A stretch of DNA of 64,000 bases from an uncultured Gammaproteobacteria bacterium (GCA_964428655.1 CAYRYE010000001.1:218258-282257); one strand, 5' to 3'; counted from the first letter of the stretch, positions 21,598 to 62,177 are shown. Notes: generated by a model not told the origin, from the letters alone. Program-made: numbers and translations.

Positions 21598-21656
21598 TAA
21601 CGCTATTTTTTCATAAAAATCTTTCTTTTTCAACTCAAATGCTATAATTGTGCCAT

Positions 21657-22817
21657 ATGAAAGCAAAGCTTTATCTAGACTATGCCGCTACTACTCCGGT
21701 TGACCCTCTGGTAGTGAAGGCAATGCTGCCATATTTTAGTGATAAATTTGGCAACTCCGCATCTTTACATTATTTTGGCCAGCAGGCAAAAAAAGCGCTG
21801 GATAAAAGCCGCAATACTATTGCCGAATCTTTGGGTGCAAACCCTGAAGAACTTGTTTTTACTGCTTCAGCAACAGAAAGCAATAATTTAGCTCTAAAGG
21901 GAATTGCCCTTGCTAATCAAGAAAAGGGAAAACATATTATTATTTCTTCTATTGAACATGATTGTGTTTTAAATAGTGCTAAGTGGTTGGAAAGTCAGGG
22001 ATTTAAGATTAGTTATTTACCAGTAGATAAGCATGGATTAGTTGACCCGGGCGATGTTGGGAAAGCAATCAGGAAAGATACAGTTTTAGTTTCCATTATG
22101 CATGCTAATAATGAAATTGGCACAATTCAGCCGATTGAGAAAATAGGCAGAATTTGCCGTCAAAGAGAAGTTTATTTTCACACTGACGCCGCTCAAACCT
22201 TTGGCAAGATTCCTATTGATGTGAGGAAAGTGAATATTGATCTCCTGACCGCCTCGTCTCATAAAATGTATGGTCCAAAAGGAATAGCTCTTTTGTATGT
22301 CAGGCAAGACGTGAAAATAGTCTCGATTTTGCATGGCGGCGGCCATGAATTTGGATTAAGGTCCTCGACAGTTAATATTCCTGGCATTGTTGGCTTTGCC
22401 AAAGCAGTTGAACTTTGTCAATCAGAAAGAAAGAAAGAAACAGGACGATTAATTGAATTAAGAGATAGAGTAATTAAGACTGTTTTAAAAGAAATCCCTG
22501 ATTCAAAATTAAACGGTCATCCTAAAAGAAGATTACCTAATAATATTAATTTCAGCTTTTCTTTTATTGAAGGAGAATCACTGGTTTTAAAACTTAATAG
22601 CCATGGTATTGCTGTTTCCACTGGTTCGGCTTGTTCTTCTCCTAAACTAGAGCCAAGTCATGTGCTTTTGGCAATAGGGTTAAAGCATAAACAAGCCCAT
22701 GGTTCATTGAGAATAACCTTGGGCAGATGGACAACAAAAGAGGAAATAAATTATTTTTTAAAGGTTTTACCAAAAGTAATAAAGGAATTGCGCGCGATCT
22801 CGCCGTTTAAAAAATAA
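21657..22817 (+). CDS. iscS: Cysteine desulfurase (IscS/NifS family, PLP-dependent)
   Basis: SSHKMYGPKG PLP-Lys motif, GSACSS active-site Cys; the ATG at 21657 is more plausible than the upstream TTG. Confidence 0.9.
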   Translation: MKAKLYLDYAATTPVDPLVVKAMLPYFSDKFGNSASLHYFGQQAKKALDKSRNTIAESLGANPEELVFTASATESNNLALKGIALANQEKGKHIIISSIEHDCVLNSAKWLESQGFKISYLPVDKHGLVDPGDVGKAIRKDTVLVSIMHANNEIGTIQPIEKIGRICRQREVYFHTDAAQTFGKIPIDVRKVNIDLLTASSHKMYGPKGIALLYVRQDVKIVSILHGGGHEFGLRSSTVNIPGIVGFAKAVELCQSERKKETGRLIELRDRVIKTVLKEIPDSKLNGHPKRRLPNNINFSFSFIEGESLVLKLNSHGIAVSTGSACSSPKLEPSHVLLAIGLKHKQAHGSLRITLGRWTTKEEINYFLKVLPKVIKELRAISPFKK

Positions 22818-23998: not shown

Positions 23999-24154
23999 TT
24001 TCAGGTCACCTCCTTTTTGTCACTCAAAGTTAAAAGTAAATTTCGTTTAACGTTTAGGTATATCTGAAGTTTAGCAAAAACCTTGAGTTTTATCAAAGAA
24101 ACCATGAAAAACAATTATTTCACTGATGACTAAACTTATATGTTATAATATAGG

Positions 24155-24595
24155 CTATGAGAATAATTGTGCTAGATAGCTGTCGAGGATTGGTTAGTGA
24201 AGTTACAGAAGGGCGGAAAAAAGGCCATGAATTGGGTCGACGTTTTGTTAGGAACCAGAGAGCAGTAGCTCAAAGCGGAGATCCGAAAATAAGGCGGGCG
24301 TGTGGTCCAGCCGCTCGAAGGGCGATCAGTGAAGGAATTTTAGGTGAACCCAATAGTAATGTAAGAGTAAGGGATTTTGTTGCTGACGCACTACTTCCGT
24401 CCGAAAGTCCGCTTAGCTTGTTAATACCCACAGGAAGAGAACTTCGGTCAAGGGTAAGAAGAGTGGGAAGAAACGTGGGGTTTGTGCAGGGAGTAAGTGA
24501 AGAGTTGGGTGGTTTAGGAAACATTGATCAATTGGTTCCGAGACCTAAACAAAGAGGAAGATAGCTTCATCAGTCTAAAGACAATTGTTTTTTTA
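24155..24595 (+). ncRNA. Candidate structured ncRNA (purine-rich, GC-enriched; contains GAAAGUCCG; identity unresolved: RNase P RNA or another housekeeping RNA?)
   Basis: Extended -10 TGTTATAAT at about 24139-24147. Downstream about 440 nt has GC content visibly above the surroundings. The only long ORF on either strand is Arg-rich and lacks an SD. The locus ends in a palindrome (ACAATTGT) plus U7. Confidence 0.35.
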
Positions 24596-28746: not shown

Positions 28747-28823
28747 TGGTCGGGGATGCCGGACTCGAACCGGCGGCCTCGCGCACCCCATGCGCGCGCG
28801 CTAACCAACTGCGCCAATCCCCG
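28747..28823 (-). tRNA. tRNA-Pro (anticodon GGG)
   Basis: 77-nt cloverleaf folded by hand: C1-G72 acceptor stem, GCGC D-stem, loop AUGGGGU (G37), TTCGAGT T-loop, encoded CCA. Confidence 0.85.
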
Positions 28824-37068: not shown

Positions 37069-37566
37069 ATGGGTTATAATGAATTAATGATTATTTTAGG
37101 AATAGACCCTGGTTTGGCTTCTACCGGCTGGGCGATTTTGAAGAAAGGGAAAGAACCAAGACTACTTGGTTATGGCTGTATTAAAACCGGTAAAGAAGAA
37201 AATTTCAGTGAAAGACTTTGTTTTATTTTTCATGAGGTGAAGAAATTAATTTTAAAAGCAAAGCCCCAGGCAATGGCAATAGAAGAAATATTTTTTGCCA
37301 AGAATATAAAAACGGCCATTAAAATAGCCCAGGTAATGGGTGTAATTAAAGTGGCTTGCAAAGAATCCGGCATGCCTGTTTTTGAATATACGCCTTTGAA
37401 TGTAAAAATGACCATTACGGGCTACGGCAGAGCAGATAAAAATCAAGTTGAAATTATGGTTTCCAAAATACTTAACTTGAAAAAAAAAGTTAAACCAAGC
37501 CATGCCGCTGATGCAGTGGCAGTTTCATTGACTCATCTTTTTACAAATTCCCAACTAAAGGTATAA
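37069..37566 (+). CDS. ruvC: Holliday junction resolvase RuvC (likely true start at 37087, MIILGIDPG)
   Basis: ILGIDPGL...; catalytic D/E/D/D pattern. Confidence 0.9.
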   Translation: MGYNELMIILGIDPGLASTGWAILKKGKEPRLLGYGCIKTGKEENFSERLCFIFHEVKKLILKAKPQAMAIEEIFFAKNIKTAIKIAQVMGVIKVACKESGMPVFEYTPLNVKMTITGYGRADKNQVEIMVSKILNLKKKVKPSHAADAVAVSLTHLFTNSQLKV

Positions 37567-37575
37567 TTAAAAGTA

Positions 37576-38154
37576 ATGATTAGTAGTATAAGAGGAAGAA
37601 TTATTCACAAGGGGATTGATAGAATAGAGATTGATACCAATGGCATTGGTTGGGAAGTTTTTCTTTCTAAAAACGGGCTTTCAAAAGTGGTAATGGATGA
37701 AGAAATAGAAATTTTTACTTTTCATCATCTTGCTGAAGGATGCGATCTTCTCTATGGCTTTCTCTCCAGGAGAGATAAGCGCGTTTTTGAAATGCTGCTT
37801 TCTGTTTCAGGCATCGGGCCCAAAATATCAATGGAAATTTTTTCTGTTGGCAATGGAGATAGAATTTTGCGGGCTGTTTCAGAAGCTGATGTGGAATTTT
37901 TTCAGCAGGTAAAAGGTCTTGGGCGCAAAGGCGCTCAGCGAATTATTGTTGATTTAAAATCAAAGGTCGGCAATATTAAAGAACTTGATTTAAAAGCTGA
38001 AGAGGGGGGTAATGAGATTATTTATCAAGCCCTCCAGGGTTTGGGCTTTACCAGGAAAGAAATTTCCCGATCATTGAGAGAACTCCCTGAAAATTTGCAA
38101 TCTGAAGACGAAATAATTAAATATGCTTTAAAGCAATTGGGAAAAAGTGGATAA
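37576..38154 (+). CDS. ruvA: Holliday junction branch-migration protein RuvA
   Basis: OB domain plus tandem HhH (GIGPK). Confidence 0.88.
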
Positions 38155-39136: not shown

Positions 39137-39224
39137 TTGGCAACACCGGGAAACTTTACTTATTTCACCTAATACTTCATTCAATCTCCTAGCTTTATAA
39201 GATGAGTTTGAATATAATTTAAAT

Positions 39225-39659
39225 ATGGGGAGAATACCATTTAAAGAATTTAAATATATTTTTAGCAAAGTTCCGAGAACAACAGCGGAAGTGGTCTTGG
39301 TAAAGAATGGTGGAATAGCGCTTACATTACGGAATATCAATCCCTACAAGGGTCTTTGGCACACTCCAGGTGGAACTTTGTTTTATAAAGAAAAAGTTGA
39401 GGATGCTGTTAAAAGGATTGCGAAGGATGAATTGGGAGTTGAAGTAGCAATAGACAAGTTTCTTGGTTATTGGGAAGTACCTGAGTGGGCCCAACCTAAT
39501 GGTTTTGGCCACGCGGTTAGTTTAGCTCATCAAGTGCGATTGGTTTCTGGTGATCTTAATGTTAATAAACAGGCTTCAGAAGTGAGAGTTTTTCAAAAAC
39601 TACCCACAAATATGATCAAAGAACAAAAAGAATTTTTGGAAAAGAAATATGGGCTATGA
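39225..39659 (+). CDS. Nudix hydrolase
   Basis: Nudix box GG.L...E...A..RE..EE.G. Confidence 0.7.
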   Translation: MGRIPFKEFKYIFSKVPRTTAEVVLVKNGGIALTLRNINPYKGLWHTPGGTLFYKEKVEDAVKRIAKDELGVEVAIDKFLGYWEVPEWAQPNGFGHAVSLAHQVRLVSGDLNVNKQASEVRVFQKLPTNMIKEQKEFLEKKYGL

Positions 39660-41788: not shown

Positions 41789-43081
41789 CTAAATTCTCAT
41801 GGTAAATAAGAAAATTTCCCTAGAGACAGTTTGCCCCGGGCGGTAATAAATGATTGAGTTTCGATTAGTTGTTTGCAAGCCCAAGATGGTAGAGTTAATT
41901 TTTTTCACGGGCAGGAAATTTTTATTCTGAAAACCTATTTTTTTAATGTCGTTTAAAATTTCTAGATAAAAGAATTGGTCTTTATAACGAATTACCGGAA
42001 AAATAATTGCGATTACCCCATTGGCCTTAAGTATTTTTTTAAATTCCTTGAAGGCTTGAATATAAAGATTTTCGATTTCCTTAATTTCTTTTTTAATCAA
42101 ATTAAGTGGGGTGAATTTTAATTTCGGTGATCCCAAATAGGGTTCGCTAATAATGGCATCTATCTTCCGTGAGAAGATCCTCGAGCTTATTTGTCGGACA
42201 TCACAATTTATAAATTCAATATGATGGTTTTCTTTTTTTAAAAAATGATAATTTTTAAACAACCATTCTAAGTTAGTTTTAGTATTAGAAATAGCGTTGT
42301 TATCAATATCTGCACCAATAATTTTTTTATACCCAAGTAAGATAAGTTCTTGCAAAAAAGTGCCACTTCCACAAAAAGGGTCGAGGAAAACTGAGTCTTT
42401 TTCTTTTCGAGTAAGGTTAATCATTATTTTGGCTACCTTTAAAGGAATCATGCCGGCGCGGGAATCTCTTTTTGGTCTTCCATAATCCCTAAAGCTGTAG
42501 CTTTTATAGTCTTGGACAGTTAAAGTTTTTCCTAAATACACCCAATGTTGTCCAACGCAAATTATAAATTCAAATCCCCGTTTTAAAAGGGAGTTCCTGT
42601 CGACAGAAACGGTCGAAAGAATTCTTTCTTTGGGGTATAAAAACCAGGAAGTTACTCCGGAGGATTCTAGTTGGTCTTTTAGTTTTTTGCAAACTTTAAG
42701 CGCTAGAGACCGAATTTTGTTCAATTCCTTAAGTTTTGTTCCGGAATGATAGAGACTGAGGCCAAAAGCAATACGTTTCTCTTTTGGGGGCAGAAAAAAA
42801 TCTTTAAATTTTTTCTTAGTTATTTCTTTGGCAAAACTTTCCAAAAAACTATCGAGTGGAACAGAAGTAAAAATCTTAATGAGCTTGGCGGTACTCCCGA
42901 AATCATTTATTGAGATATATTTTTCAATCTCTTTTGGACTTTCAATAATCAATGTTTCTTGGGAGGCCTCTATTACCTTAAACGGAATCTTTTTGAAACT
43001 TAGCACATTTAAAATTTCTACTTTACAAAGGGTATGGTTTGTTCCAAGAACAAAGCAATATAAAAACGAGGCAGTATTCAT
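41789..43081 (-). CDS. THUMP-domain class I SAM-dependent RNA methyltransferase (RlmL/Trm14-like)
   Basis: Motif I DPFCGSGT; N-terminal THUMP-like region; UPF0020-type architecture. Confidence 0.6.
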   Translation of the reverse strand: MNTASFLYCFVLGTNHTLCKVEILNVLSFKKIPFKVIEASQETLIIESPKEIEKYISINDFGSTAKLIKIFTSVPLDSFLESFAKEITKKKFKDFFLPPKEKRIAFGLSLYHSGTKLKELNKIRSLALKVCKKLKDQLESSGVTSWFLYPKERILSTVSVDRNSLLKRGFEFIICVGQHWVYLGKTLTVQDYKSYSFRDYGRPKRDSRAGMIPLKVAKIMINLTRKEKDSVFLDPFCGSGTFLQELILLGYKKIIGADIDNNAISNTKTNLEWLFKNYHFLKKENHHIEFINCDVRQISSRIFSRKIDAIISEPYLGSPKLKFTPLNLIKKEIKEIENLYIQAFKEFKKILKANGVIAIIFPVIRYKDQFFYLEILNDIKKIGFQNKNFLPVKKINSTILGLQTTNRNSIIYYRPGQTVSREIFLFTMRI

Positions 43082-47530: not shown

Positions 47531-48522
47531 TGGAAAAGGTTAAGAAGATTGAAATCTCTCATAGAACAATAGTCTTCTCTGTTTTATTTCTCGTCGCTAT
47601 TTGGTTTCTCTATCAAATAAGGGAAATTTTGTTAGCCCTTTTTATTTCCATAATCCTAATGGGAGCTATTAATCCTACCGTTGATCGTTTGGAGAGGTGG
47701 CGCTTGCCTCGTTGGCTGGCAATCCTTTTGATTTATCTTGTTTTATTGAGTTTAATAATTACTGCCATTGCTGGTTTGATTCCTCCCTTAGTTGATCAAA
47801 CCAGTCGATTGGTACAGGTAGTAATTGACCTTTCTGACAGACTTTCCTTTTTGGGACTCTCTTCGGAGAAAATAAGATTACAAATTCAAGAGCTGGGAGC
47901 GTTACCAACTCAGATATTAAAACTGGCAGTTTCGATATTCTCTAATATTATTGCTATCTTTGCCATTTTAGTAATCACTTTTTATTTGCTTCTGGAGCAT
48001 AAAAACTTGGATAGATATCTTTTCTTTCTTTTTGGTCAGAAGCGTAGAGAAAGAGCTAAAAGAGTAGTCGGCAAGCTGGAAAAAAAGCTTGGCGGCTGGG
48101 TCAGGGCAGAGTTACTTTTGATGACAATTATTGGTTTGCTTTCATACATTGGTTTTCGCTTGCTGGATCTCCAATTTGCTTTGCCTCTGGCGATCTTGGC
48201 CGGACTGTTGGAAGTCGTTCCCAATATTGGTCCTACTTTATCAGCGGTGCCAGCTGTTGCCATAGGATTGTTAGAATCATCTCTGATTGGTCTTTTAGTT
48301 TTGGCCTGGACTTTTATTATTCAACAATTGGAAAACAATTTGATTGTTCCTAAGCTAATGCAGAAAACCGTTGGGGTCAATCCTTTGATCACAATTTTGA
48401 CATTAGCGGTTGGTTTTAAACTAGCGGGGGTAATGGGGGCTGTTCTGGCAATTCCAGTTTATCTGGCAATTGAAGTAGTTGTTTCAGAGTTTATCTCTTT
48501 AAAAAAAGCCAAAGGCCAATAA
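47530..48522 (+). CDS. AI-2E family transporter (PerM/YhhT-like membrane protein)
   Basis: About 8 TM helices; AI-2E/UPF0118 architecture. Confidence 0.75.
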   Translation: MEKVKKIEISHRTIVFSVLFLVAIWFLYQIREILLALFISIILMGAINPTVDRLERWRLPRWLAILLIYLVLLSLIITAIAGLIPPLVDQTSRLVQVVIDLSDRLSFLGLSSEKIRLQIQELGALPTQILKLAVSIFSNIIAIFAILVITFYLLLEHKNLDRYLFFLFGQKRRERAKRVVGKLEKKLGGWVRAELLLMTIIGLLSYIGFRLLDLQFALPLAILAGLLEVVPNIGPTLSAVPAVAIGLLESSLIGLLVLAWTFIIQQLENNLIVPKLMQKTVGVNPLITILTLAVGFKLAGVMGAVLAIPVYLAIEVVVSEFISLKKAKGQ

Positions 48523-48540
48523 GCCAGATTCTGTTTTTTC

Positions 48541-48725
48541 CGATATGTTTTATGTATCGGAACTGGATTCATCTATCTATGCTCTCCACCTGGTGTTAAT
48601 GAGGGAGGCTTCTCAACACCGATTTGAGATTGCTCAAAGGAGGGTTGCCTCGTTTCACCCCCGATATGTTTTATGTATCGGGACTCGTCTCTGTGGCCCT
48701 ATCTCGTCCCCCGATATTTCGGGGA
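48541..48725. repeat. Cluster of short perfect hairpins: two copies of CCGATA-TGTTTTATG-TATCGG (48541-48561, 48662-48682) and CCCCGA-TATT-TCGGGG (48710-48725)
   Basis: Seen directly in the sequence, in a 360-bp non-coding stretch. Confidence 0.7.
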
Positions 48726-48885
48726 AGTTCTAACTTGCGTTAGAACACTTTGCCTCCGCGAGTCTGGACTTTCCTGATCGAAATTTCGACCCGAATCCTT
48801 AGCCTTTAACCAGATATATTATACCATGGAATGCAGGAAAAAGCCCCTCATGCGTAAAAGAGAGGCTTTTTCAAGTTAACGAGCT

Positions 48886-52738: not shown

Positions 52739-53610
52739 TGAAAGTTAAATGGATAAAGTTTAGCTGGTTGTATTTTTTGATTTCAGCTATTGTTTTACTG
52801 CCGGGGATTTACTCTTTATTTAAATGGGGAGTGAAACCCGCAATCGACTTTACCGGCGGCACTTTATTAGAGCTCAAAGGAGAGGGATTAAATAATGATT
52901 TGATTAGTAGGTTAGCTGGAAAAATGGAGCTTAATTTAGAAAGCCAGCGGGGAAGCGAAGCCAATAGTCATCTTCTCAGATTTTCTCAGCTTGGAGAAGA
53001 TAAGAAGAATGAGCTGATAACAGCCCTGGAGAAAGAAGTAGAAAATATTGAAATAATCCGGTGGGAAACTTTAGGGCCTGCTCTGGGAAGGGAGCTTTTA
53101 ATTAAAACTGGAGTGGGAATAATTTTGGCAGTTTTGGCGATTCTGGTTTATATCAATTTTCAGTTTAAGGATAAATGTTTTGGCATTTGCGCTATTTTGG
53201 CCATGCTCCATGACAGTTTAATTCTTTTAGGGGGTTTTAGTTTATTAGGTCATTTTTTAGACGTTCAAATAGATGGCCTTTTTGTTACTGCCATTTTAAC
53301 CACTCTTTCAACTTCAGTTCACGATACTGTGGTTGTTTTTGACAGGCTTAGGGAATTAAGTAAAATTTATCCAAAGCTTGGGATATCAGAGATTGCCAAC
53401 CAAGCAATTAGTCAAACCCTAACCAGATCAATTAATAATTCTTTAACAATTATTTTTATGCTGGTAGCTTTGGTTTGGCTGGGAGGGGAAACAACCCGCT
53501 GGTTTGCCGCCGCTTTATTAATAGGAACTACCGCCGGCACTTATTCATCCACTTTTATCGCCGTGCCTTTACTTGTAGTTTGGAAGAAAATATTTACAGG
53601 AAAGGAATAA
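52738..53610 (+). CDS. secF: Protein translocase subunit SecF
   Basis: Follows secD; SecF architecture. Confidence 0.9.
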   Translation: MKVKWIKFSWLYFLISAIVLLPGIYSLFKWGVKPAIDFTGGTLLELKGEGLNNDLISRLAGKMELNLESQRGSEANSHLLRFSQLGEDKKNELITALEKEVENIEIIRWETLGPALGRELLIKTGVGIILAVLAILVYINFQFKDKCFGICAILAMLHDSLILLGGFSLLGHFLDVQIDGLFVTAILTTLSTSVHDTVVVFDRLRELSKIYPKLGISEIANQAISQTLTRSINNSLTIIFMLVALVWLGGETTRWFAAALLIGTTAGTYSSTFIAVPLLVVWKKIFTGKE

Positions 53611-53689
53611 CTTGCGGGATGTTCCACCTGAGAGATGGAACAGCAACTTTTGTAGTTGGCTTATAACGGTGGTATAATTAAAGTTATGA

Positions 53690-54000
53690 GTGAACAAAAG
53701 CAAAGGAGAAGTTTAAAGAGGAGATTCGTAGATTGTGAAGAACGCTTTCGGGATGGTGTAAGACTACAAGGCCGCATGGTTCACAATAGACAAATGGCAG
53801 AAGGGGCTCTTTGCCTGCTTAGGTATTCAGATCTAAAGCCCGGAGAGAGAAAAAGGTTAAAAAGAACAGCAGAGTCTTATTCTCTTAGGTTTGAGACCAC
53901 TAGATGCAGACTTTCTATGAGTTCGCCAGCTACAAGGCTTGGTTCTAGGGTTGCAGCTGTTCGTGGACTTTTTCCTTTAAAAAGATAGGCCTATTTTGTA
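53690..54000 (+). ncRNA. Candidate structured ncRNA downstream of an extended -10 (TGGTATAAT at about 53676-53684); identity unresolved
   Basis: GC-enriched; the long ORF is Arg-rich and its ATG would lie upstream of the predicted transcription start. Confidence 0.3.
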
Positions 54001-54046
54001 AACTCCAAAAGATAGAAAATCCTAACATTTTTCAAGCGAATTTTGG

Positions 54047-54271
54047 TTAATTTTTTAGTTTGTCTGCCGGACATTTTGTTCTGCCAATTACAGTTGCTCC
54101 ACCTGGTGCAAGGGGGTTAAAAACAATTCGGGTAGTAATTTTATTGGTTGGATTTGACTTTGAAGGTTCTTGGACACAAGTGACTTCCACTCCCATTCTG
54201 CCCCTAAAACGCGAACATGTTCTGCAAGCAACACCTGGAGGCATAAGATTCCTTCCTTTGTATTCTGTCAT
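54047..54271 (-). CDS. Possible small Cys-containing protein (74 aa); mutually overlapping with a plus-strand 77-aa ORF; doubtful
   Basis: ORF only; no SD. Confidence 0.2.
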   Translation of the reverse strand: MTEYKGRNLMPPGVACRTCSRFRGRMGVEVTCVQEPSKSNPTNKITTRIVFNPLAPGGATVIGRTKCPADKLKN

Positions 54272-54401
54272 ATTAGAGCCTATTTTACTTTAGTGATAAA
54301 ACTGTTTCAATCTAGTGATCTGTTTTTCCCGGCTGGCCAGATTTCTTTGCCCACTTTAAATATTTTTGCGTTTAGGATAATCCTCTAATATAATATGCGC
54401 A

Positions 54402-55205
54402 ATGCTTTCACAAGTTGAAGCATATGTAGAATATGCGCATAAACCAGAAAATGCATGGGAATTAGTAGAGCGGCCGATATTGGACTATGTTTTTGAGAGA
54501 TTTTATTGCGCTAGATTCAATAGTTATCGAAAACAAGATACAGTACCAACCACTTTTGGCTTTCCGATTGCCAAAGATTTTCAGGTTTTGGATTTGGGAA
54601 CTGGGACAGGTAGGGTTCCGGGGCGTCTAATTGACTACGGCGTTCCAGCAGATAATATTGTTGGGATCGACAGGAATCAAGATCTATTAGGAGTCGAATT
54701 CTTTCCTGATGGCGCGAGAAAGGTAGCTGGTGATGTCAGAGAACTTGATCGGCTATTAGGCGCTGACGAGTCTTTTGATTTTATTACTGCAAACATGCTG
54801 TTTCATCTTTTAAGTTATCCTGATTATGTGGGGTGTTTAAGACAAGTCCGTAATCATACCAAAAGGTTTAGAACAAGGGTGTTAATTATTGTGCCCCATC
54901 CATTAAGGAGAGGAATATATACTACTGGCGAATACCACGCCCATTCAGCTTTAACAGAGAGAGCACCCTGGGGAGAGGAAATACAAGTTCAACAAAAGAC
55001 GATTCAGGATTATGAAAGAGGATTATTTGAGGCGGGTTTTGACACTTTCTACATTGCTACATATGGAGTTGGTTTGGATAATGTAGATAGTACTTTTTTA
55101 ATAAGAGACCAAGCGTCTTGGAGAAAAATTGGAAGAAGGAAAAGTGTTGGTAAGAAAAGACCATCGCATCTTCGCTTGTGGCTTTTTGCTCATCCAAGGG
55201 GATAA
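54402..55205 (+). CDS. Class I SAM-dependent methyltransferase
   Basis: Motif I VLDLGTGTGR; GC content visibly higher than the neighbours. Confidence 0.65.
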   Translation: MLSQVEAYVEYAHKPENAWELVERPILDYVFERFYCARFNSYRKQDTVPTTFGFPIAKDFQVLDLGTGTGRVPGRLIDYGVPADNIVGIDRNQDLLGVEFFPDGARKVAGDVRELDRLLGADESFDFITANMLFHLLSYPDYVGCLRQVRNHTKRFRTRVLIIVPHPLRRGIYTTGEYHAHSALTERAPWGEEIQVQQKTIQDYERGLFEAGFDTFYIATYGVGLDNVDSTFLIRDQASWRKIGRRKSVGKKRPSHLRLWLFAHPRG

Positions 55206-55243
55206 ACAGCTCAAAAAAAACTCTATAAATAAAGCTTTTTACA

Positions 55244-55792
55244 TCAATCTGTAATTTTAAATGTTGCTATTATTTGATCAACTTCTTCTTCGCGGTTCAT
55301 GTTTAACAAAGTAATATACTTGTCCGCAACTTTTTTAATTGTTAGATTATCCATTTGAGTTTTATATCTACTCTCGTAGTCTGAAAAAGTATCCCAGACT
55401 TCTATGGGTAGATCGTAAGATTGCCCGCCTTTATATAAAAGAACAACTGCGTCGGGCCAGCCATAGAGATTTTTTTTGTCATCCAGAGCTTGGTAGTTTT
55501 CCGGATATGAAATTTCAAAACCATATTGCTCGTTTTTATAAGTGGTCCAACCCTGTTTAACTGAAGGAGTTGCAGTGGGTATAGGTGTATTTGTTGCTAC
55601 TGGTATTGTTAATGTCGGTAATGTTGTTGGGGTTTGTGTTGATACTGGCGTTGGTTCTGTAAAAGGTTTAGGTTCTTTCTTTTTACCTTGTTGTGTTCCT
55701 AGATAATAAGCCAGTCCAATACCTGAAATGGCTAAAATAGTTATTAATATTAGGAAACCAGATTGTTTCTTCATTGTTATAGATTTTAGCAT
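55244..55792 (-). CDS. Exported protein with a Thr/Pro-rich linker
   Basis: Signal-anchor, PT-rich low-complexity linker, globular C-terminus. Confidence 0.55.
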   Translation of the reverse strand: MLKSITMKKQSGFLILITILAISGIGLAYYLGTQQGKKKEPKPFTEPTPVSTQTPTTLPTLTIPVATNTPIPTATPSVKQGWTTYKNEQYGFEISYPENYQALDDKKNLYGWPDAVVLLYKGGQSYDLPIEVWDTFSDYESRYKTQMDNLTIKKVADKYITLLNMNREEEVDQIIATFKITD

Positions 55793-60225: not shown

Positions 60226-61158
60226 ATGGGTTGGGAGAAGTTAAGAAAACTCTTACTGTTTAATCTAGTAGCATTGTTGGAAGTTATTTTTATTCTTTTG
60301 GCAGCTAAGTTTATTATTTTCAACAAAGTGATTGCCGATTTTCAAATTAGCCCAAAATCCTTTCCAAAAACAAACAGGTTTGTTCCTCCCCCGGCAACTT
60401 CGGCCGAATCAATACTAGTGATGGATGTTGATTCGGGAGCAATTATTTTCCAAAAGAAACCTCATTTGAAATTACATCCGGCCTCAATTACCAAGATGGC
60501 AACGGCCATCACTGCTTTAGAAGCTTATCCAATTGATGAAGTGATTACTATTAAGGAAGAGTATTCTATTGGCAAGACGATGGAGTTATTAGCAGGGGAG
60601 AGGATCACAGTTGAGAATTTAATCTATGGTCTTTTGATTCATTCTGCTAATGATGCCGCTTACATTCTTGCTGGCCAAAATGATGAACAAGTGAGGCGCT
60701 TTGTCGAGCGCATGAACGATTTTGTTAGACGATTAGGTTTAAAAGAGACCAATTTTGTTAATTTTAACGGTGAGGATGATGAGGGCCATTATTCAACAGC
60801 TTTTGACTTAGCTCATTTGGCCAGATGGGCCTTGAAGAATAAAATCTTTTCCCAGGCGGTTCAGATTAAGAACGTGACTGTAGAAAGTGTTGATGGCTTA
60901 ATTGAGCATCAGCTTGAAGCTACTAATGAACTTTTAGATGTTCTTCCTGAAGTTAGAGGAATAAAAACCGGCTGGACTCCCCAAGCGGGGGAATGTTTTA
61001 TTGGTTTAATTGACTTGGGTGATCATCAGTTGATTACTGTGATTTTGGGTAGTCAAGATCGTTTCCTTGAAACAAGAAAATTAATTGATTGGTCTAAAGA
61101 AGCTGTTTCTTGGTTAGATTACGATTCTGACCATTCAATTGGCGGAGCCGGAACATAG
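60226..61158 (+). CDS. D-alanyl-D-alanine carboxypeptidase (S11 family, PBP5-like)
   Basis: SITKM (SxxK), SAND (SxN), KTGWT (KTG). Confidence 0.85.
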   Translation: MGWEKLRKLLLFNLVALLEVIFILLAAKFIIFNKVIADFQISPKSFPKTNRFVPPPATSAESILVMDVDSGAIIFQKKPHLKLHPASITKMATAITALEAYPIDEVITIKEEYSIGKTMELLAGERITVENLIYGLLIHSANDAAYILAGQNDEQVRRFVERMNDFVRRLGLKETNFVNFNGEDDEGHYSTAFDLAHLARWALKNKIFSQAVQIKNVTVESVDGLIEHQLEATNELLDVLPEVRGIKTGWTPQAGECFIGLIDLGDHQLITVILGSQDRFLETRKLIDWSKEAVSWLDYDSDHSIGGAGT

Positions 61159-62177
61159 CCCCAGAAGTTATTATCTCCTTGAAAAACAAAAATTGGTTGT
61201 AAAAATCGAGCCAATGCGGGTGGATTAAAGTAACCCATAGAAATCTTTCTTATCTTAACGGAGCTGGTTTGACTGCCATCAAAAGAAGCCAAAAAGTATT
61301 TTCCGGATTTAATTTCATCCCAAGCTTGTTGAATGGTTTTTAAAGGGTAAGTGCCGAATTTTTCTTGATCGATAGGGAAATGAGTGTATTTTACCTCGAC
61401 TACATTTTTACTCTGAATCTCTATGCCGGAGATAAGGACTGAAACCAGGTCTTGGTTGGGGTTAGGGGGTAAAACAGAATATTTGTCGTCTATTTTGATT
61501 CTAGCAATATTAATTCGCATGAAATCGGCCTCTGATGGAGAAATAGCGGCCACCAATTTGTTTGTAGTTATTTTCCAATAAGTTGGTTTGTATTCCCCCT
61601 CCTTGAGATCACTAGTTAATTTGCCAATTCTTTCTAGAAATGTCTTCGTTATATTGATCGCTTCTGTTTCTGAAGGTAAAGAGGAAGGATTGATTAAAGT
61701 TTGATCACCCAGATAGGCGTATGAGTACTCAAAACTTTCGGTTAAGACGTTAATTTTCAACTGGGTGTTATTAATGGAGTTATCAAACCAATAGATATTT
61801 TCACTTATTTTTTTGGGTTTGGCGGTAAAGCCCAATTTCTCTGCTAAGCTGGTCGCTTTATCCAAAGACAAGAATCGGCCGCCAATTTGAGGGATAAAAT
61901 AGACTTTTTCAACACTTGGCAAGTCAGTTGGCAAGTGTCCTTCGGCGGTTTCTAATTGTAAATCGGTTGGTTTTTGGCTTTTTTCTTTGGGGAAACTAAT
62001 GGCCGGCAGTTTGCCGAAGGCAGTGTTTGGCGGCGGCGGCGGCGGTGGATGGAGCTTTCTCCAATAAGATTTAGCAATTCCAAAACTAGTTTTTAAAACA
62101 AAAAGGAGAACTAGAAAGATACTGGCGAATTTCACAAATTTGCGCGTATAGTAAGAGGTGATTGTCAATTGTGACAT
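61119..62177 (-). CDS. Membrane-anchored hypothetical protein with a poly-Pro tract
   Basis: N-terminal TM; PPPPPPP; no recognisable family; 3' end overlaps the carboxypeptidase gene by 40 nt. Confidence 0.5.
   Translation of the reverse strand: MSQLTITSYYTRKFVKFASIFLVLLFVLKTSFGIAKSYWRKLHPPPPPPPNTAFGKLPAISFPKEKSQKPTDLQLETAEGHLPTDLPSVEKVYFIPQIGGRFLSLDKATSLAEKLGFTAKPKKISENIYWFDNSINNTQLKINVLTESFEYSYAYLGDQTLINPSSLPSETEAINITKTFLERIGKLTSDLKEGEYKPTYWKITTNKLVAAISPSEADFMRINIARIKIDDKYSVLPPNPNQDLVSVLISGIEIQSKNVVEVKYTHFPIDQEKFGTYPLKTIQQAWDEIKSGKYFLASFDGSQTSSVKIRKISMGYFNPPALARFLQPIFVFQGDNNFWGYVPAPPIEWSES

Follow-up and report, generated by a model that had tools for sequence, protein, structure and literature searches.

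The 791 nt between the stop codon of secF (TAA, 53608-53610, + strand) and the ATG of a methyltransferase gene at 54402 most likely contain two small lineage-specific protein genes and not a GC-rich structured RNA. We put the probability at about 70% that this interval consists of two small converging protein-coding genes, orf100 on the + strand and orf74 on the - strand, which are leaderless or nearly so. The window referred to throughout is the whole stretch of DNA that was analyzed (64,000 nt). All sequence features named in an earlier interpretation from sequence alone (here called the sequence-only reading) fall within the 791-nt interval, and reading the sequence located the hairpin after secF (GTTCCA-cctgagaga-TGGAAC, 53621-53641), the extended -10 element (TGGTATAAT, 53670-53678, matching the consensus TGnTATAAT), and an Arg-rich ORF (53656-53988, +) that measures 110 aa when counted from a TTG and has an in-frame ATG at 53686, exactly 7 nt past the -10 box, where +1 is expected. 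GGAG and GAGG are indeed absent within 20 nt upstream of the orf100 and orf74 ATGs, and two ORFs do overlap on opposite strands (77 aa, 54060-54293, +, and 74 aa with four Cys, 54047-54271, -). Our reading is chiefly a correction of what these features mean, as it is normal for genes here to lack an SD, to have their ATG where transcription starts and to be overlapped by antisense ORFs. orf100 and orf74 are ordinary hypothetical small genes, both already called by public pipelines, and the locus neither opens nor closes a long-standing question.

In the arrangement we propose, orf100 (53686-53988, +) and orf74 (54271-54047, -) would form two monocistronic, convergent transcription units, each with its own sigma-70-type promoter setting the start of transcription at the ATG or ∼3 nt from it. 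The ribosome would bind the 5'-terminal AUG directly on these leaderless or near-leaderless mRNAs. orf74 would encode a basic protein with four Cys that is probably a zinc ribbon, and orf100 a very basic, partly helical and Arg-rich one that probably binds nucleic acid; orf77, the third ORF of the locus, would be only an antisense shadow of orf74. What we observed comprises the sequence features, the lack of RNA structure, the homologue of orf74, the -10-to-ATG pattern and the break in synteny; the transcription starts, translation, metal binding and any function are inferred.

The sequence-only reading had placed the locus in a GC-rich patch and interpreted it mainly as a structured non-coding RNA of a new family. 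The segment 53640-54300 has a GC content of 39.9% compared with 38.5% for the window (66th percentile; 661-nt windows have a standard deviation of 2.8 points and a maximum of 46%), and its flanks are similar (39.1% in secDF and 40.5% in the methyltransferase gene). A search of the whole window against Rfam 15 at gathering scores returned only RNase P RNA (48504-48810, -, 106 bits, 46.3% GC) and one tRNA (tRNA-Pro, 28750-28823, -), both located elsewhere and neither in 53500-54500. When the scan of 53500-54500 was relaxed to E<=10, a single chance-level frameshift element appeared (E = 7, 16 bits compared with a gathering score of 35). Compared with dinucleotide shuffles, the predicted folds have lower stability (z = +1.76 on the strand of orf100, +2.72 on that of orf74, and +0.70 on that of orf77), and the spacers fold no better (z = +0.6 to +1.2). 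RNase P RNA, with its Rfam match and 46% GC, is thus unlike the orf100/orf74 locus, which has no match, 40% GC and a poor fold. The Rfam scan and the fold prediction had been named in the sequence-only reading as ways to check the RNA, and both went against it; so does the conserved protein homologue of orf74 described below, which is among the findings that the sequence-only reading had named as refuting an RNA. DNA similarity to the region is absent from 125 related loci retrieved in SecF genome and metagenome scans, as is protein similarity, which leaves no material for building covariation or for dN/dS. Six contigs contain the locus and show 100% identity there, with no polymorphism for a test of selection. 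An extended -10 identical to that of RNase P RNA, the absent SD and the ORFs overlapping on both strands would all fit a structured RNA. Against this stand the folds of both strands, a GC content that is not raised, an Rfam scan whose only match at E<=10 has E = 7, and the fact that 54047-54271 is explained by a protein homologue, an intact ORF and conserved Cys residues. We give a new structured RNA family almost no credence.

The protein homologue concerns orf74 (54047-54271, -), which encodes a basic protein of 74 aa with four cysteines (Cys-16, Cys-19, Cys-32, and Cys-67). An indexed search of 5.8 billion proteins returned only self matches for orf74. An exhaustive HMMER search of 1.84 billion representative proteins identified P0009, a hypothetical protein of 72 aa from the JGI metagenomes 3300056889 and 3300057013 (loci L136 and L137), with E = 1.9e-6. 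The two sequences share 39% identity over residues 9-74 of orf74 by BLASTP (pairwise E = 2e-16) and 39-44% in full-length alignments, in which Met-1, all four Cys, the motif NP[LI]APGGAT and the C-terminal CPxxxLKN-stop are kept. The layout from promoter to ATG is also similar: orf74 is preceded by TTGAAA, 17 nt and TAAAAT (54282-54310, -; 10 of 12 matches in the promoter scan), with the ATG 10 nt further on, and the P0009 gene is preceded by TTGAAA, 17 nt, TAACAT and 7 nt. Its genomic context, in contrast, differs from that of orf74. The P0009 gene is divergent from a gene for a 469-aa protein without a Pfam match and is followed by one for a predicted membrane protein (as judged from its sequence), and neither the methyltransferase nor an orf100-like gene is found nearby. 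The conservation of start, stop and Cys residues in an unrelated context implies purifying selection. orf74 is thereby placed, by sequence similarity, in a very rare and unnamed family of small Cys4 proteins, which orf74 and P0009 document and which so far has these two members. We regard orf74 as very probably coding, the homology argument being that of the single homologue P0009.

A second candidate, P0010 (468 aa), was rejected as a homologue, its similarity being a chance 9-residue match, FNPLAPGGA, repeated six times. P0010, which matches orf74 residues 43-60, contains the units FNPLAPGGAR, FQSTRPGWGEA and ISIHSPRVGRG and resembles the three-frame translation of a CRISPR-type repeat array.

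Both ORFs could instead be non-functional, having arisen by chance or being remnants under decay in a rapidly evolving spacer at this variable junction. The two are orphans or nearly so, their coding scores are atypical, and junction length and content vary among relatives. Dinucleotide shuffles of the 791-nt stretch produce an ORF of at least 100 codons in 5% of cases, a length that is by itself mildly unusual; in 3% there is a further ORF that reaches 74 codons or more. We nevertheless consider non-functional ORFs very unlikely, given a 41% identical homologue that retains the start, the stop and the four Cys in an unrelated context, and given that the starts of orf100, orf74 and the methyltransferase gene each have a correctly spaced -10 element, which is expected for ∼5% of ATGs.

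The ORF antisense to orf74, orf77 (54060-54293, +), begins with TTG and is aligned with orf74 such that their third codon positions coincide. In the DNA encoding P0009 (L137) the sense frame is intact, and the antisense frame equivalent to orf77 contains at least 3 internal stops. Because stops interrupt its frame in the homologue, we regard orf77 as an ordinary shadow ORF and not as a gene. In tblastn, the residual similarity of orf77 to the antisense frame of the homologue mirrors the conservation of the sense strand, and searches of profile libraries found no family for it. Purines occupy 51% of first codon positions in orf77, compared with 68% in orf74 and 65% in real genes. Mutual antisense overlap had been regarded as a signature of RNA, but the 64 accepted genes of the window contain 32 antisense ORFs of at least 70 aa, of which 18 lie in the wobble-aligned frame of orf77 and orf74, the commonest antisense-ORF frame in the window.

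The four cysteines suggest that the orf74 mini-protein is probably a zinc-binding ribbon. Searches of Pfam, PHROGs, NCBIfam, PADLOC and PDB sequences assigned orf74 to no family, and a Foldseek search with its low-confidence AlphaFold model gave no match at E<=0.001. We considered whether orf74 could be a Trm112-like zinc-ribbon partner or activator of the divergent methyltransferase, or a derivative of the ribosomal protein bL36 (rpmJ). The two genes adjoin divergently, with 130 nt between their ATGs, and the likeness to bL36 is seen in several places. The bL36 zinc site has the arrangement C-x2-C-x12-C-x5-H in a protein of about 37-38 aa, and the N-terminal half of orf74 (54176-54226, -) shares with it the spacing of the first three Cys (C-x2-C-x12-C), the motif CR[TN]C and basic residues between the Cys, as does that of P0009. 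bL36 is also the best PDB profile match of orf74 (E = 0.78), and an hhalign comparison with the genome's own bL36 aligns 20 columns. However, the hhalign probability is 5%, the His ligand of bL36 is absent, orf74 has double the length, including a conserved C-terminal half without counterpart in bL36, and the similarity is not significant. At 74 aa, without the His and with these scores, orf74 was rejected as a bL36 ribosomal protein; a normal rpmJ is present in the same genome (17639-17752, +). A likeness of orf74 to Trm112 found no support in the Pfam-A scan. That scan, which included Trm112p, gave no match to any family, at E<=1 for orf74 and at E<=10 for P0009, the HMMER filters dropping most matches weaker than E ∼0.1, and within this scope a Trm112-like activator is not supported. 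Moreover, P0009 is not located beside a methyltransferase, and the 67% identical homologue of the methyltransferase has no orf74-like sequence within 220 nt upstream. We judge a partner of this kind or a bL36 derivative to be highly improbable. A broader proposal would unite orf74 and P0009 in a new family of zinc-ribbon mini-proteins with four Cys and leaderless genes in ultra-small (CPR) bacteria, maybe descended from a bL36-like ribbon and acting on the ribosome or on RNA, perhaps together with the orphan methyltransferase nearby, and would make orf100 a young Arg-rich gene, perhaps born de novo, at a fast-turnover junction; we regard it as speculative and quite unlikely.

orf100 (53686-53988, +) encodes 100 aa with 20 Arg and a calculated pI of 11.4. 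Its predicted promoter (53650-53678, +) is composed of a -35-like TTGTAG (53650-53655; three of six consensus matches), a 17-nt spacer and TATAAT (53673-53678), the latter being part of the extended -10 element at 53670-53678. The TGnTATAAT 9-mer occurs only 7 times in the 64 kb, both strands counted. The ATG follows the -10 box by 7 nt, and the sole SD-like match upstream is a GGTG that overlaps the -10 region. The frame of orf100 scores 0.0 to +0.1 bits/codon over 53656-53880 compared with -0.3 to -0.8 in the other five frames. Over the whole ORF its coding score (-0.03) is above those of 99% of spurious ORFs and below those of ∼98% of real-gene segments (mean +0.19, first percentile -0.05). 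Because the score of orf74, a gene with homology support, is lower still (-0.10), we take this atypical score as weak evidence against orf100. Its composition is gene-like, with 70% A+T at codon position 3 and 61% purine at position 1, and AGA or AGG accounts for 16 of its 20 Arg codons, in keeping with an AT-rich genome. The NCBI, JGI and Logan pipelines all called orf100 as a gene. The indexed search of 5.8 billion proteins found only self matches for orf100, and the Pfam, PHROGs, NCBIfam, PADLOC and PDB sequence searches gave no family. Single-sequence AlphaFold models of the two ORFs, orf100 and orf74, are of low confidence (pLDDT values of 54 and 48 for the pair). We consider it likely that orf100 is coding, with less assurance than for orf74, and its very basic product (20% Arg), for which an N-terminal helix is predicted, probably binds nucleic acid.

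The principal alternative for orf100 is that it is not translated. The promoter would then drive a non-coding, weakly structured RNA of ∼300 nt, and orf74 would be the only gene; such an RNA could be regulatory or antisense, reading through the 58-nt spacer and interfering with orf74. The lack of a homologue in the indexed search, a coding score on the border between the spurious and the real distributions, the low-confidence AlphaFold model, and the failure to find a terminator between the convergent units are all compatible with this, and an identical promoter 9-mer drives a known non-coding RNA, that of RNase P. But orf100, the longest ORF of the locus, opens with an ATG precisely where a strong extended -10 promoter predicts +1, its frame clearly outscores the other five, and codon-position composition and the choice of Arg codons are those of a gene. 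In addition, the fold is less stable than those of shuffled sequences (z = +1.76), and orf74, with its homologue, scores even lower on the same coding measure. On balance we find an untranslated orf100 rather unlikely and prefer the coding interpretation.

The spacing between -10 element and ATG at orf100 and orf74 recurs in the genome. A -10-like hexamer (at least five of six matches, with A2 and T6) is located 4-12 nt upstream of 16 of the 65 gene starts (25%), compared with 5.2% of all ATG triplets (binomial P = 1.6e-7). Examples are at 24144-24159, 37562-37578, 39213-39227, 41789-43081 (-), 45516, 49179, 61119-62177 (-) and 62217. The pattern is found mostly at first genes, and internal genes of operons carry a GGAG-type SD. 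The gene for RNase P RNA (48810-48504, -) may serve as an internal ruler for the distance from -10 to +1: TGGTATAAT is found 7 nt before its Rfam-aligned 5' end (48810-48826, -) and 7 nt before the orf100 ATG, and the two thus share an identical extended -10 9-mer and the same spacing to the first transcribed base, which for orf100 is a predicted one. RNase P RNA is probably also the first locus implied when the sequence-only reading called the present one the second of its kind. A third leaderless-type start at the locus belongs to the methyltransferase gene, where TATAAT (54389-54394) ends 7 nt before the ATG; its homologue in L132 (67% identical) keeps TATAAT, 7 nt and ATG, and the remaining upstream DNA cannot be aligned. 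All three genes of the locus carry the element at a distance typical of leaderless genes (TATAAT and 7 nt for orf100, TAAAAT and 10 nt for orf74, TATAAT and 7 nt for the methyltransferase).

The classic leaderless-rich phyla are the Actinobacteria and Deinococcus-Thermus. Published work gives a Pribnow box at 6-8 nt from the start of a gene as the signature of bacterial leaderless genes ("group C" of GeneMarkS-2, PMC6028130), and more generally bacterial leaderless genes have a Pribnow box ∼6-10 nt upstream of the starts of the first genes of operons (PMC6028130; Zheng et al. 2011, PMC3160421). orf100, orf74 and the methyltransferase gene resemble these in having TATAAT or TAAAAT 7-10 nt before the ATG and no SD; they differ in that the host is a Patescibacteria (CPR) genome and in that the transcription starts are predicted. 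orf100 and orf74 each have an AUG start and no SD, the two marks of a leaderless gene, and their mRNAs are predicted to be leaderless or nearly so, the 5' ends being predicted ones. For orf74 the predicted leader is ∼3 nt or shorter, 2-4 nt being as likely as none. An SD would be missing from both because the mRNAs start at the ATG or within ∼3 nt of it. An SD-less ATG at the transcription start, which had been read as a cue for RNA, is thus the signature of a leaderless gene and recurs in this genome. The excess of -10 boxes suggests that leaderless transcription may be widespread in this CPR genome; a search of the accessible literature found no paper directly on leaderless transcription or translation in CPR/Patescibacteria. 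A practical rule for reading the rest of this genome is to take TGnTATAAT or TATAAT ∼7 nt upstream of an ATG as the mark of a leaderless first gene. Elsewhere in the window, TGCTATAAT (21640-21650, +) overlaps the TTG assumed as the start of a 389-aa ORF (21648-22817), the true start of which is therefore probably further downstream.

The hairpin after secF (53620-53642, +) begins 10 nt past the stop codon. Its arms, GTTCCA (53621-53626) and TGGAAC (53636-53641), are extended by a pair between T53620 and A53642 to a 7-bp stem (TGTTCCA/TGGAACA) with a 9-nt loop, and it was also recovered as inverted repeat I7. The stem contains 3 G-C pairs and is followed by gcaacTTTTg, in which the run of four T starts 6 nt after the stem. 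Its fold does not exceed what chance would give (z = -0.9 to -1.5). The terminator scan does not call it; an intrinsic terminator would have a GC-rich stem, a short loop and a T-run directly behind the stem. It is at best a weak terminator for secDF. An AT-rich spacer of 58 nt (53989-54046) separates the convergent stops of orf100 and orf74 and contains an imperfect palindrome (inverted repeat I1), in which the terminator scan found no convincing intrinsic terminator (fold z = +0.9 and +0.7). With no terminator predicted there, the convergent transcripts may overlap and interfere.

We compared the junction between secF and cca with those of related loci. The SecF protein is at most 63-65% identical to those of Patescibacteria and Shapirobacteria metagenome-assembled genomes. 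Most of the closest related loci have p398-p208-secD-secF, a convergent cca and recJ in this order, and in several others recJ follows secF directly. secF abuts cca in L009, L011 and L066, and 0.1-1.1 kb lie between them in other relatives. Here the junction (53611-55785; compared with L008-L015, L066 and L081) measures 2.2 kb and contains orf100, orf74, the methyltransferase gene and a gene for a 182-aa protein (p182). None of the 23 related loci that extend to a gene past secF (SecF 40-65% identical) has a homologue of any of these four downstream of secF. The junction is thus variable, and comparison of these sequences indicates that the 2.2-kb segment is lineage-specific. On our reading, lineage-specific genes collect at the secF/cca junction in Microgenomates-like bacteria.

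The sequence-only reading had offered recently acquired DNA as an alternative to RNA. The absence of the 2.2-kb segment from the 23 related loci agrees with acquisition and is the sole support for an island; GC content (40% compared with 38.5%) and Arg codons, however, are native. The nearest relatives are so distant (SecF at most 63-65% identical) that a "recent" acquisition cannot be shown. We found no convincing flanking direct repeats or att-like site around the insert and no tRNA nearby, and searches of viral contigs, phage and plasmid collections and defence libraries returned no phage, plasmid or defence match for orf100 or orf74. Mobility genes are likewise absent, and neither composition nor repeats or a tRNA support a horizontally acquired island. 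Acquired DNA would be compatible in part with the 2.2-kb segment.

The methyltransferase gene (54402 to 55205, +; 267 aa), which is divergent from orf74, encodes a SAM-dependent enzyme (Pfam Methyltransf_25, E = 5.6e-9). It is rare, with 5 homologues among 5.8 billion proteins, the best 67% identical, and in the defence libraries it matches only PADLOC mad2, in the methyltransferase domain (E = 1.7e-8). A 13-nt direct repeat, which may be due to chance, is present at 54389-54401 (TATAATATGCGCA) and 54427-54439 (TAGAATATGCGCA) on the + strand. The first copy spans the promoter and start region of the methyltransferase gene; 38 nt downstream of it, the second falls within the gene. The 182-aa ORF (55244-55792, -) shares 7 nt with the end of cca. 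It matched no family and is not found in relatives, and its sequence reads as having a hydrophobic segment at the N terminus and a linker rich in Pro and Thr.
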